Of a DNA stretch of 64,000 nt, positions 21,001 through 33,000 are shown piece after piece. Position numbers: made by a program. The DNA is from Escherichia coli O157:H7 (GTDB lineage: Bacteria > Pseudomonadota > Gammaproteobacteria > Enterobacterales > Enterobacteriaceae). Position 1 is the stretch's first letter, and the number at the start of each line of letters is the position of its first letter. The stretch lies in the NCBI RefSeq assembly GCF_013167455.1, contig NZ_CP038328.1; one strand, given 5' to 3'.

Positions 21001-24000
21001 AACCAATGGCGATTTGCAGATAGCCAAATGAGATCGCTGCAAATCCCCATCTCGGCCCCAGAGTATTTGATACCCAGGCGAAGACACCACCTTCTTCCCA
21101 GCCGTCGACGGTGGCCATTTCCGCAGCACAAAGTCCCACGGGAATAAACCATAAAATCCCGCCTAATAGCAGGAAGAAGACTAATGAAAAGCCCGATGTT
21201 GCGAAGGTAGGGTATTCATAAACAGCCATTACCATCGATGCCGTTATGGCAAAAAAGCCGAGTAATGTGAGCTGCTTAGCTTTACCTGTCTGTACTAATG
21301 TAGCCATATTATCCCCCTAAAACGGTATTCCTGTCGGAACCGCACCTGTTTTGTTCTGAAGCGTATTCAGAACAATATTTTCCGTTGCTAATGCCAGTGA
21401 ACAGACTTTGGAAATTGTCCCGAAACGGGTTCGTTTCGGGACACCGTTACCGTTAAACGTTATCAGGTATGTTTAAAGCTGTTCTGTTGGGCAATACCCT
21501 GCAGTTTCGGGTGATCACTGAGATATTTCAGGGAGGCTTTGTAGTCTTCCAGCAACAGTTCAGCAAAGTCCATTTCGAAGCCGCGACGACACATAATGCG
21601 CATCACCACGATGTCGGTGGCTTCACCGCCGAGAGTGAAGGCCGGAACCTGCCAGCCGCGCAGACGCAGACGTTCAGAGAGGTCATACAGGGTGTATCCC
21701 GGATCTTCACCATCTTTCAGTTTGAAGCAAACCGCCGGAATGCCTTCGTCCGGGCGACCGGTACAGATGAACTCATACGGCCCCAGTTTGGCGATTTCAT
21801 CCGCCAGATAAGCGGCAACCTGGTAAGAGGCGTTCTGTACTTTGGTATAGCCTTCACGACCGAGGCGCAGGAATTCATAGTACTGTGCAATTACCTGACC
21901 CGCCGGGCGGGAGAAGTTGATGGCGAAAGTACCAATCTGACCACCGAGGTAGTCAACGTTGAACACCAGTTCCTGCGGCAGCGCTTCTTCATCACGCCAG
22001 ATAACCCAGCCGCAGCCCAGCGGAGCCAGACCGAATTTGTGGCCTGAAGCACTGATCGATTTCACACGCGGCAGGCGGAAGTCCCAGACGATATCCGGGG
22101 CGACGAACGGTGCCAGGAAGCCACCACTGGCGGCGTCGATGTGCATGTCGATGTCGATACCGGTGTCGGCCTGGAATTTATCCAGCGCATCGTGCAGCGG
22201 TTGCGGGAACTCATAGTTACCGGTGTAGGTCACGCCGAAAGTCGGCACCACGCCGATGGTATTTTCGTCGCAGGCTTCAATCATGCGTTTCGGATCCATA
22301 AACAACTGACCGGGGCGCATAGGGATCTCACGCAGCTCCACATCCCAGTAGCGGGCGAATTTATGCCAGCAGATTTGCACCGGGCCGCACACCAGGTTTG
22401 GTTTATCCGTTGGTTTGCCTGCAGCTTCCATACGCTTGCGCCAACGCCATTTCATCGCCATCCCGCCGAGCATACAGGCCTCGGAAGAACCAATGGTGTT
22501 GGTGCCAACGGCCTGACCATTTTTCGGCGCAGGCGCATGCCACAGATCGGCAACCATATTTACGCAACGCAGGTCGATGGCTGCAGATTGCGGATATTCT
22601 TCTTTGTCGATCCAGTTTTTGTTAATGGATAAATCCATCAACTTGTGGACGTTTTCGTCGTCCCAGGTCTGGCAGAAAGTGGCCAGGTTCTGACGAGCGT
22701 TGCCATCAAGATATAATTCGTCATTGATAATCTGAAATGCGACATCGTCGCGCATTTCGTGCAGCGGAAAACGTTTTGATTCTGCGATAGTGGAAATAGA
22801 CTTCGCACCAAAACGTGAATCGAGTAGTTCCGACCTTAAATCCGTTACTTGCTTCTTATCCATTTTAAACTCCTTAAAATGATTGGATCGCATTAAAAAA
22901 GTAGGATTTATCGATAAAGTAAGCAAGTGCAAAGGACTCGTGTTTAAATAACAAAATCCTAATGTTATTTATGGTGAGATATTGCGTGAATAATATTTTT
23001 TATTGAAAAACAATATAGTAGGGAGCTCTTGGGTGGTAGTAAGGTGTTTTATGCTGTTATTTTTATGCGTATTCTGTGCCTCCTGAATTATCACGTAAAA
23101 ATCAGACCTTAAAATATCACTATTAGTACGCGGTTATTATTTTGAACGCATTTATAAAATTATTACATAAAAATAGCGAATATTGCTAAAATCCCCGCCA
23201 ACGATGTGTTGACGGGGCTGTTATTATTTTGGCAATAATACTCCGGTATAAGTATTTACCGGATGAGAAAGATATTGTTTAACGGCAGTGTTAACATTCT
23301 CTACCGTCATTTGTTTCAACAATTGCTCCTGCTCAGTCCATGCTGCAGGATCGTCATATTGAATAAGACTATTTACAATAGTGTTCGCTAATTGTTGAAC
23401 GCTACGCTGTTGGATATCGAGGCTGCGCTGAACGTTTTGCTGGTATTCGTTCAGTTCTTGCTCACTGATCCCTTTAGTCAAACGCTTAACCATCACTTCA
23501 TTCGCTAACGTTAACAGTTCATCATGTCGTTCTGGTTGACAAGTAAAAGCCAGCAAATGACTGATATCTTTAGCCTGAGGATCAACCGAGAGGCGAGAAG
23601 AAACGCTGTATGCCCCAGATGCCTGTTCACGAATATTAACGCGTAGATCTTTTGCCAGTGCGACGTTAAAAGCATCGAGCGCCATACGCGTCGCCAGATT
23701 AACAGGTGTCCGGGAATCATAACGCTTCCACTGTGAAACCTGTGCCACAGGTTCATTTTGTTCCTTTACAGTAACCGATGCGTTGTCCGTCGCGCGAGTT
23801 AATGGTTTACCTGCGGCTAATGGCGAATCAGAGTGTTTGATTGATCCTAAGTAACGCGTAATTAACGCCACGAGTTTGTCTTCTGCGACATTACCGACAA
23901 TGACAAACGTGATATCCGCTGGAGATGAAAACAACTGGCGATCGGCAGCCAGCGCATCTGCGGCAGTAAACTGTGCAATCTGATTTTCTTGCAGTAATTT

Positions 24001-30000: not shown

Positions 30001-33000
30001 GTTTAACCAGACCTGAATTTTAACCACGCCAAGGATCATGGCGAGGATAATAATGATTAACAACACTGAAGTTTTATTATTCTTACGCAGCCAAAAGGGC
30101 TTCAGCAGACAGAGATACTTTGCTATCAACATACAAAACGTAATGGGAATGGTTATCATTAGCGAAAATTGATTGTGCCATCCAATGATTATCTATGGCA
30201 ATGATTTACTGATGAAATTTATTTAAGTATCATTTAACAATATGAAATATATAGAAATTTTTAATTTTCAGTGGTTATGGTTATGCTATTGATAATCAAG
30301 GGTATTGCTAATGCCCTGACGCATACCACGTAAGCCAAGATTTTCGCAAGGGAAGATGATGATGACGAAACACCCGACAGGAATTTATGTCGGGTGCCTT
30401 GTTAAGGTCATAAGAAGGAGGCTAAGAATGGAGCTAAAAGAGAGCGTTATTAATTATTCTCCATTTGTTTTGCAACATCCATAATGTGGTAAAGCGGTAC
30501 TCTGTTCTTGGCTAACTCCACCATGGCGTTCATATAAGGTACCATGGTTGAAAAAAGGATTTTATAACCTTCGCAAAAATAGGAAACAGTCTCATCGTTT
30601 ACTTTAGTAATACGATGCTTAGGGCAACCGCCATTGCAGATAGGTTTATATGCACATTGCTGACATTTCGCTGAAATCCGTTTTTTTTGCGCTGTCAGTT
30701 GTACACTGTTCATCGTTTTAAGTTCAGATTTATTAATGTTTCCAAGTTTGTACTGTGGATAGACAAAATGATCGCATTCGTAAATATCTCCATTACTTTC
30801 AACAACCAGATTATCCTTGCAGGACTCCTGGAAAATACAACTGGTATGCCCATTCCCCAAAAAACGGCTGACAAAGCTTTCAAACTGACGGATGAAAATT
30901 TCACCCACATCGTTTTTAACCCATTGCATAAAAATGGTTGACATAAACTTGCCATAAGCCGTGGGAGGCACAGAAAAATCAATGATACGGAATGTGTTCT
31001 CACTATGACCACTGAAATCAATATTCGGCGTCCCGGTTTCGAGCAATTCGATAAATTGCATATGTTTACTGCCGATAGATTTTAAAAAATGATAAACCTC
31101 AAGAGGGTAATGGACATTAACGTTATTAATGACGGTTAACGTATTAAACTCTACTTGATATGATTTCAGACGCTCGATGGCTGCTATCACTTTTGCAAAA
31201 GTACCGTTACCTGAATTACTGCGTCTGTAACGGTCATGTAGCTCCTGGGGTCCATCGATCGAGATACCAACCAGAAACTCATGTTCTTTGAGAAAGGCAC
31301 ACCATTCATTATTCAATAAAATGCCATTCGTTTGTAATGCATTAAAAATACGTTTTTGGCCTGCATAGCGTTGTTGATAGTGAATAACTTTACGGAAAAA
31401 ATCCAGGCCAGCCAGAGTGGGTTCACCGCCTTGCCAGGTAAAATAGACCTGATTGCCAGACGCTGCGATATATTGTTTGATGAACTCTTTCAGAGTGCTG
31501 TCATCCATCCATTTTTCATGAGTAAACTGCGACTCTTTTTCAAGGTAAAAACAGTAATCACATTTGAGATTACATTGAAAACTGGAGGGCTTGGCTGTAA
31601 CGTGCATCGCTATCTCGCTCAATAAGGCGGCGGAAAAATCCGCCGCATGAAGGTTTAGTTATTTCGCTTCGCTTAGTGCTTTCTTGATATTGTTAAACTT
31701 CTCCTGATTTACCTCGCTAAGCGGTGGCTGGCTGCTGTCGATAAACTCTCTTACCACGCCTTGCATCTCTTTAACGACCTGCGGATTGGCGGCGGCAAGG
31801 TTATCTTTTTGCTGTAGATCCGTCAGTTTGTAGAGACCTAACTGATTGTTTTCTACTGTATAGACAAGCGAATAATCGTTATTTCTCACCGTATAAGAGA
31901 ATTGGCTTAAGTCCTCAGTGTTGGGGTTATGCGGGTAATCGTCTGACTGATGACGGACAAATTTGTGGTAGTTATCCCAGAATGGAATATTTTCCTCATC
32001 AAACCAGTGAGAATAAGAGGTTATCCAGGTCAGATTTTTATGTGGCTCGCCTTGTTTCTTATCTTGCAACCAGGGCAGCAAGGAAACGCCATCCAGCTTA
32101 AGGTCTTTTGGAATGCTGATATCGGCTGCATCAAGAGCTGTCGGGTAGAAATCCATTGCGGAAATCAGCTTGTCATAATTACCGGGTTGAAGTTTTCCTT
32201 TCCACCACATAAACATTGGGGTGTGAGTACCGCCAGGATAGGTCTGACTCTTATAGCCTTTTTGCGCCCCGTTCAGCGGCAGAGGACCATCGATAACCGC
32301 ACCATTATCGGAGGTAAAGAGAATAATTGTATTGTCATACTGTCCGTTTTTCTTCAGTTGTTCGAGAATGCGTTTTACACCCTGATCAACAGAATAAACG
32401 GAAGCGTAGTAGTTATCTGCTGTTTGACTACCGGTATTAAATTGCTTCTGATATTGCTCCGGTGCAGGATTATCATTTGGCAGGTGCGGAGCATTATAAG
32501 CCAGGTAAAGCATAAAAGGCTGGTCAAGTGTTTTGGCACGATCAACAACGCCAATTGCCTCATCGGTTAACTGATCGCTGATATAACCTTTTGCGGGGAC
32601 ACGTTCACGATTCTTGAACAGTGAAGGGGAGTTGTAATATGCCGTTCCTGCAGCGTGGAATCCCATAAAGTAATCAAAGCCACGGTTTTGCGGTTGCCAT
32701 TCTTCCGCAGAAAATGTGGTGAAGTTGTCATGATAGTCACGTGTTTGTTTATCTTCCGGTACCGGCACATTACTGATTTTTGACAAGTGCCATTTACCTA
32801 CTGCTGCAGTGTAATAACCATGATTCTGGAATAATTCAGGCAAGAAAGTTTCTGTTAGCGGAATACCATCCTGAGCATCAGTATTGGAATAGACACCAAA
32901 GCGGGCGGGCGCTCGACCGGTCATTATTGCGGCGCGGGAGGGGCCGGAAACACCGTGCGCCACATAGCCGTTAGTAAAACGTACGCCTTCATCCATTAAT

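Follow-up and report, generated by a model that had tools for sequence, protein, structure and literature searches.

A stretch of 64,000 nucleotides (nt) of Escherichia coli O157:H7 DNA (contig NZ_CP038328.1; hereafter the window) contains yddA, yddB and pqqL, three minus-strand open reading frames which the original prediction had described as a co-oriented, tightly spaced cluster resembling the Fus ferredoxin-uptake system of Pectobacterium. Their annotations were taken from E. coli O157:H7 chromosomes showing 100% identity to this 7.5-kb stretch. The yddA gene (28474–30159; annotated start 30159) encodes a fused inner-membrane ATP-binding cassette (ABC) transporter of 561 amino acids (aa) homologous to FusD, yddB (26064–28436) encodes a 790-aa divergent TonB-dependent outer-membrane transporter of the FusA subfamily, and pqqL (23224–26019) encodes a 931-aa four-domain periplasmic M16 zinc protease homologous to FusC. 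The described arrangement was borne out, with gaps of 37 nt between yddA and yddB and 44 nt between yddB and pqqL. The second gap becomes 56 nt with the RefSeq start of pqqL, as this gene has two in-frame ATGs four codons apart: the one at 26019 gives the 931-aa protein on which the UniProt/PDB numbering (H80, H84) is based, and the one at 26007, chosen in RefSeq, has a GGAG 8 nt upstream and gives 927 aa.

The three-gene unit is bounded by hairpins after pqqL and after ydeM. Downstream, a terminator-like hairpin (23187–23217, minus strand), which begins 7 nt past the pqqL stop codon and consists of a 10-bp GC-rich stem followed by AUUUUA, is likely the 3′ end of the operon; folding of an 81-nt stretch gave −21.6 kcal/mol (z −4.2), and none of 200 shuffled sequences was as stable. 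On the other side, an inverted repeat 3′ of ydeM (30371–30396, minus strand; folding of a 51-nt stretch gave −19.6 kcal/mol, z −5.8) sets the upstream gene apart from the yddA promoter region. Together with the published co-transcription of yddA-yddB-pqqL by reverse transcription PCR (PMC3855560), the short gaps on one strand and the bounding hairpins provide the clustering and co-transcription expected of a Fus-type system. A third hairpin, located between yddB and pqqL (26025–26046, then UUUU), was considered as an attenuator; its stability does not exceed that of shuffled sequence (z −1.1), and it is probably not one. An Rfam scan of 22800–30600 returned zero RNA families, and the repeats in this interval look like chance matches, none of them meaningful.

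The domain content of the three proteins agreed with what had been read from the DNA. YddA contains ABC_membrane_2 and SbmA_BacA domains (residues 28–350) followed by ABC_tran (residues 383–515), and it matches SbmA family models. YddB shows a weak Plug match only, with no barrel match in Pfam and no NCBIfam family, which characterizes it as a divergent TonB-dependent transporter. A candidate TonB box, EEMTVYA (28326–28346, minus strand; residues 31–37), follows its signal peptide ending in AQA and resembles known TonB boxes, for example the DTILVRST of FusA (PMC7593965). PqqL consists of M16, M16_C and M16_C domains, and its translation contains HFVEH (25768–25782, minus strand; residues 80–84, with H80, E83 and H84), the inverted zinc-binding HxxEH motif that the original prediction had assigned to it. 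In the crystal structure, H80 and H84 coordinate a metal, and the protein is periplasmic, its signal peptide being cleaved (PMC6793856).

The resemblance to the Fus components was then examined at the level of the individual proteins. Pectobacterium loci were fetched with a 214-aa FusA fragment from a PDB alignment, which retrieved 20 Pectobacterium-type loci; Pectobacterium FusA was absent from the 63 relatives that YddB found in a word-indexed protein search. In P. peruviense, the gene order is fusB (encoding a TonB_C domain), fusA, fusC and fusD. BLASTP comparisons with the proteins of this species gave identities of 37% between YddA and FusD (over 536 aa, E 1e-122), 28% between YddB and FusA (over 811 aa, E 9e-92) and 25% between PqqL and FusC (over 948 aa, E 5e-57), and all three E. 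coli proteins align with their Pectobacterium counterparts over the full length. When YddB was searched against all PDB sequences, the only matches at E<1e-3 were its own K-12 entry (6OFR) and FusA (4ZGV, E 5.9e-81); at this threshold, none of the solved siderophore, haem or cobalamin transporters was matched. Fold comparison gave the same ranking: for the AlphaFold model of YddB (pLDDT, the predicted local distance difference test score, 80), the nearest non-self fold found by Foldseek was again FusA (E 2.6e-60, template modelling (TM) score 0.83, 26% identity), and the next transporters followed at E about 1e-30, TM about 0.6 and 13% identity. PqqL matched its own K-12 structures (6OFS, 6OFT), then 9LDY, an unpublished M16 protease entry nearer to it than FusC, and then FusC itself (6B03, 6B05, 6BRS), end to end and with an E value of 1e-59; the remaining M16 proteins reached 2e-21 at best and over partial length. 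For YddA, the best solved relative was Rv1819c (6TQE; E 1.3e-66, residues 35–552), an importer of hydrophilic compounds.

These results demonstrate that the likeness of YddA, YddB and PqqL to the Fus components is specific and goes beyond generic family membership, so the comparison of YddB and PqqL with FusA and FusC, which had been set as a test, came out in favour of the proposed relationship. A FusA-subfamily receptor, an adjoining FusC-type M16 protease with an HxxEH motif and a signal peptide, and a FusD-type ABC transporter were all found, and there is hardly any doubt that yddA-yddB-pqqL belongs to the Fus-type, or protease-associated import system, family. As for the complete Fus component set claimed originally, the receptor, the M16 protease and the ABC transporter stand as full-length homologues, while FusB is absent from the E. 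coli cluster. The Fus resemblance of the operon is right and not new: Grinter et al. in 2016 identified the E. coli counterparts of FusA, FusC and FusD, by homology, as YddB, PqqL and YddA, respectively (PMC5095587), and in 2019 they described the protease-associated import system class together with the crystal structures of YddB (6OFR) and PqqL (6OFS) (PMC6793856).

The relationship of PqqL to FusC also bears on the role suggested by its historical name, that of a PqqF-like protease in the biosynthesis or processing of pyrroloquinoline quinone (PQQ). PqqL does match TIGR02110 (PqqF) weakly, with an E value of 4.9e-12, and an old report of its complementing Methylobacterium pqq mutants is cited in PMC3855560. 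The score of this match, however, is 45.4 bits against a cut-off of 320, and FusC is a much closer relative of PqqL than PqqF is. Moreover, E. coli makes no PQQ (PMC3855560), and the uptake of PQQ by E. coli is assigned in PMC12124388 to another transporter, PqqU. Given this sub-cut-off score and the lack of PQQ synthesis in E. coli, a PQQ-biosynthesis role was rejected and can be regarded as effectively refuted.

The three genes also stay together in other genomes. Besides the clustered locus of Pectobacterium (L006), the trio was found in an Orbaceae genome (L002), a probable Proteus locus (L004, 7465–17306), Muribacter muris (L005), an E. fergusonii-like contig (L029) and a more distant relative (L031), with a gene order that differs among the loci; YddA orthologues were present in six of the six other trio loci compared. 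This linkage, which has survived rearrangement, argues for a joint function of the trio. The probable Proteus locus additionally carries a divergent TonB paralogue, an extracytoplasmic function (ECF) sigma factor, a FecR-type anti-sigma factor and a receptor with an N-terminal STN domain, which implies substrate-induced surface signalling there; the E. coli system is without it.

We next consider the regulation of the operon, for which a Fur-box-like sequence had been noted 20–50 bp upstream of yddA. Sites were scored by match count to the 19-mer Fur consensus at the ~128,000 positions of the window. The motif meant (30181–30199, minus strand), whose core GATAATCATT (30193–30184) lies 25–34 nt upstream of the annotated yddA ATG, matches the consensus at 12 of 19 positions, a score shared by 171 window positions; the probability of reaching it by chance in a sequence of equal length and composition is about 11%. 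The motif has no conserved counterpart in the E. fergusonii-like locus and is a weak match at chance level. The claim of Fur control is carried instead by another site, GCTAATGATAACCATTCCC (30145–30163, minus strand), which matches at 15 of 19 positions and overlaps the annotated yddA ATG. This is the joint top score, held by two positions in the window (chance P about 0.01, in an AT-rich region); no site in the window had three or fewer mismatches, this one having four. It is the published Fur box, the same element as GGGAATGGTTATCATTAG (PMC3855560) and the 19.6-bit Fur cluster (PMC2189734). The 15/19 match is kept in the E. fergusonii-like locus, and boxes matching at 16 of 19 positions are found upstream of the yddA-like genes in the more distant relative L031 and in Orbaceae.

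A promoter-like site (30172–30201, minus strand) consisting of TTGCCA, an 18-nt spacer and a TG-extended CACAAT (9/12 + TG in a consensus scan) suggests that the operon promoter lies directly upstream of the Fur box at 30145–30163, with the weak 12/19 motif falling within its spacer. In the E. fergusonii-like locus, the corresponding sequence is TTGCAA-18-CACAAT. As this locus keeps the −35 and −10 hexamers, their 18-nt spacing and the Fur box, but not the sequence of the spacer, the comparison indicates that 30145–30163 is the site that matters.

The overlap of the Fur box with the annotated ATG is related to the choice of the yddA start codon. All six aligned homologues, FusD included, begin at the position of YddA Met10, and in the E. 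fergusonii-like locus the frame of the upstream ATG runs into a TAG after six codons. On these grounds, the functional start is probably the ATG at 30132–30130 (M10), giving a protein of 552 aa, and the annotated ATG at 30159 is probably wrong. A recognizable Shine-Dalgarno sequence was found neither at ATG 30159 nor at ATG 30132. With this start, the Fur box would be located at −31 to −13 in the leader, between the promoter and the start codon, in agreement with the description in PMC2189734.

Published experiments support the regulatory assignment. Chromatin immunoprecipitation (ChIP) of Fur and regulon membership have been reported for the operon (PMC4676285, PMC7157518), which is also a member of a Fur iModulon; it is derepressed in a fur mutant and induced >30-fold in urine (PMC3855560), and western blots showed that an iron chelator induces PqqL (PMC6793856). 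Thus, the iron regulation expected of a Fus-type system was found both as a conserved 15/19 box and as published ChIP and fur-mutant derepression, and the lack of Fur-dependent regulation that would have counted against the original prediction is contradicted by these data.

The regulation and relatives of YddA are relevant to a report describing it differently. In that study, minimum inhibitory concentration and dye-efflux assays in an acrB-deleted background, with efflux inhibited by vanadate and reserpine, led to YddA being described as a multidrug exporter (PMC9728188), and ABC-exporter families are indeed among its NCBIfam matches. If so, its adjacency to yddB and pqqL would have no meaning for an import pathway. 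Yet the membrane domain of YddA is of the SbmA/BacA type, its best solved relative is an importer, its closeness to FusD is accompanied by orthologues adjoining FusA- and FusC-type genes in the seven loci examined, and Fur control fits a role in uptake. In addition, earlier overexpression studies, as summarized in PMC10971958, showed no drug-resistance phenotype. We therefore consider it very improbable that YddA is an exporter standing next to yddB and pqqL by mere adjacency.

Overall, the evidence points with fair probability to a Fur-repressed yddA-yddB-pqqL operon encoding a protease-associated import system that, taken as one mechanism, would serve protein uptake when iron is scarce. Under plentiful iron, Fur would occupy 30145–30163, just downstream of the putative promoter, and block transcription; the site is present in the sequence, and binding and derepression are known from the literature. 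Under iron scarcity, a single mRNA would be made for the three genes, in line with their published co-transcription. YddB would then bind a small folded protein and pass it to the periplasm by means of the single TonB of the cell, where PqqL would enclose and cut it, and the cofactor or peptide fragments set free in this way may finally reach the cytoplasm through YddA. Both the import step and the use of the housekeeping TonB are inferred; the proposed role of YddA draws on its homology to FusD and on the importers Rv1819c, SbmA and Burkholderia YddA, the last of which is required for sensitivity to the lasso peptide ubonodin, implicating it in uptake. The structure of YddB has an unusually large outward-facing cavity of about 28 Å, and PqqL is a periplasmic peptidase acting on F/Y-F/Y-V/A peptides (PMC6793856). 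Protein translocation by YddB is suggested by the size of this cavity and by homology; translocation of a folded protein by YddB was not demonstrated in any paper found. The imported protein probably contains iron and originates from the host or other microbes, and it is not ferredoxin.

More specifically, YddB may work with the ordinary TonB and without a FusB-type helper to pull in a small folded metalloprotein, which PqqL would dismantle, with YddA importing the cofactor-bearing fragment. We put this forward only tentatively and regard it as somewhat doubtful in this full form. It corresponds to the published working hypothesis, of which only the YddA step and the independence from FusB have been less discussed. 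If true, this would be the first demonstration, in a model bacterium associated with animals, of a pathway that imports whole proteins as nutrients.

Several observations weigh against protein import for iron. The literature searched, up to a paper of November 2025 (PMC12702245), names no substrate of YddB or PqqL; PqqL cleaved neither plant or human ferredoxins nor globins, and yddB and pqqL mutants grew normally in iron-limited LB medium, even when all iron transporters were lacking (PMC6793856). For the claim of a candidate iron-piracy system, this means that the part concerning Fur regulation holds, with the piracy step itself staying a candidate. In Pectobacterium, import requires FusB, which binds ferredoxin directly (PMC7593965), while the E. 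coli cluster has no FusB, and the annotation lists no TonB-like gene across the initial ~49.7 kb of the window (the window matches the annotated record to 49766 and departs from it beyond). The operon in strain CFT073 did not respond to dipyridyl alone (PMC3855560), which conflicts with the PqqL western blots mentioned above (PMC6793856). A simple consensus scan found no Fur box of at least 13/19 upstream of the P. peruviense fus genes, and conservation of the box is not claimed out to Pectobacterium. The vanadate-sensitive export reported for YddA (PMC9728188) belongs on the same side. Finally, the operon is dispensable in some successful human-associated lineages, being deleted in 726 of 5426 complete E. 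coli genomes (13%).

An alternative is that the cargo is not a folded protein but a small molecule or a short unstructured peptide; a metal chelate, a compound resembling an antibiotic and a peptide are examples. In that case, YddB would work as a conventional ligand-gated transporter, the task of PqqL would be peptide trimming, and peptides or amino-acid derivatives would enter through YddA. In agreement with this, PqqL cuts short peptides with a narrow motif and cut no tested protein, transporters of the SbmA/BacA type carry peptides, metabolomics ties yddA to the uptake of proline and dipeptide-like compounds, and YddB has been linked to the entry of novobiocin in work cited in PMC12702245. 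On the contrary, YddB stands closest, in both sequence and fold, to FusA, which imports a protein, and a large open cavity is common to both; PqqL shares the enclosing four-domain architecture of FusC over its full length; and the trio is conserved with FusA-type receptors in distant taxa. Taking both sides together, we judge a small cargo to be unlikely.

Compared with known systems, the E. coli operon is closest to Pectobacterium FusABCD, with which it shares a FusA-family receptor, a four-domain periplasmic M16 protease with HxxEH and a fused ABC transporter of the SbmA/BacA type in one cluster. The two differ in gene order (yddA-yddB-pqqL versus fusB-fusA-fusC-fusD), in the lack of a FusB TonB homologue, so that the E. 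coli cluster is not a Fus system in the strict sense, and in peptide specificity, PqqL sparing ferredoxins (PMC6793856); the identities are just 25–37%. As to ferredoxin as substrate, the published evidence indicates that the E. coli system departs from Fus here (PMC6793856). The protease-associated import systems of Orbaceae, Muribacter and probable Proteus have the same three-gene set with a receptor of the YddB/FusA family, and YddB/PqqL is itself a named member of this class (PMC6793856; PMC12702245); the probable Proteus locus differs by its TonB paralogue, ECF sigma factor, FecR and receptor STN domain, all of which E. coli YddB is without. YddA resembles SbmA, BacA and Rv1819c, importers of peptides and large hydrophilic compounds, through its SbmA_BacA membrane domain, whereas SbmA has no ATPase domain. 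With the Fur-regulated siderophore systems (FepA, FhuA, FecA, CirA), the operon has in common Fur repression, a TonB-dependent receptor and an inner-membrane ABC transporter. YddB, however, has no sequence match to siderophore receptors at E<1e-3, resembling them at about 13% identity and a TM score of about 0.6; the operon encodes a periplasmic protease in place of a periplasmic binding protein; and unlike the binding-protein-dependent siderophore importers, YddA has an exporter-type fold fused to an ATPase.

The distribution of the operon within E. coli was also examined. At least 80% of the cluster is carried by 4603 of 5426 complete genomes. The 726 genomes with the deletion share one specific junction, which removes ~6.3 kb (about 24138–30444 of the window) and fuses ydeM with the final ~914 bp of pqqL (L026, 9001–9924), so that the promoter, yddA, yddB and the catalytic half of pqqL are gone. 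The junction occurs, among others, in a strain labelled O25b:H4-ST131, and in a variant form in LF82. This deletion stands out in view of the description of the operon as an extraintestinal fitness factor. In a few other E. coli strains, insertions of IS1 split yddA or yddB.

In bloodstream infection, the operon contributes to the fitness of uropathogenic E. coli; urine induces it strongly, and Subashchandrabose et al. in 2013 showed its role in fitness during mouse bacteraemia (PMC3855560). Knowing the identity of the cargo would show which nutrient the host supplies unwillingly, and YddB could be of use as a vaccine antigen or let Trojan-horse drugs into the cell. The present analysis adds the placement of the Fur operator, the probable misannotation of the yddA start and the deletion of the operon in about 13% of complete genomes, which are useful for the design of reporter fusions and the choice of strains.

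In the window, the operon is flanked by gadB and by ydeM/yneP. The small yneP open reading frame (40 aa; 30362–30484, plus strand) lies in the ydeM-yddA intergenic region and overlaps the 3′ end of ydeM. The G+C content of the operon is 42–48% (23500–30000), compared with 55–58% in the adjoining gadB, and the E. fergusonii-like locus retains the gadB side of the neighbourhood, with the other side being different. This low G+C content and one-sided conservation fit earlier reports that the family is distributed sporadically and was possibly acquired by horizontal transfer. Copies of the cluster that seemed to lie on plasmids were set aside, since they are mostly chromosome-sized records, four of six Escherichia records measuring 4.8–4.9 Mb; the other plasmid-collection records with the cluster are of 385 kb and 150 kb, with one 3.7-kb fragment. 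A second YddB-like receptor, 70% identical, was seen in a contig labelled E. coli O146 (L030, 4001–6364) near transposase genes of the IS66 family; no ABC transporter or M16 gene was called upstream of this receptor, and the contig ends about 0.5 kb downstream of the receptor gene.

Elsewhere in the window, dosP (14149–16538), which encodes an oxygen-sensing cyclic di-GMP phosphodiesterase, is annotated as a frameshifted pseudogene in the O157 record identical to the window there; it is intact in strain Ecol_AZ153. The region 44433–51600 contains a truncated helix-turn-helix gene, a hipA toxin gene truncated at its N-terminal end and an autotransporter of the ECSE_1600 family with a frameshift. 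The sole other 15/19 Fur match of the window, GACAGTAATACTCATTATC (45677–45695), is located inside this hipA remnant and probably arose by chance. From 49766 onwards, the window no longer agrees with strain FDAARGOS_293 position for position, which probably reflects an insertion or deletion within the autotransporter gene.

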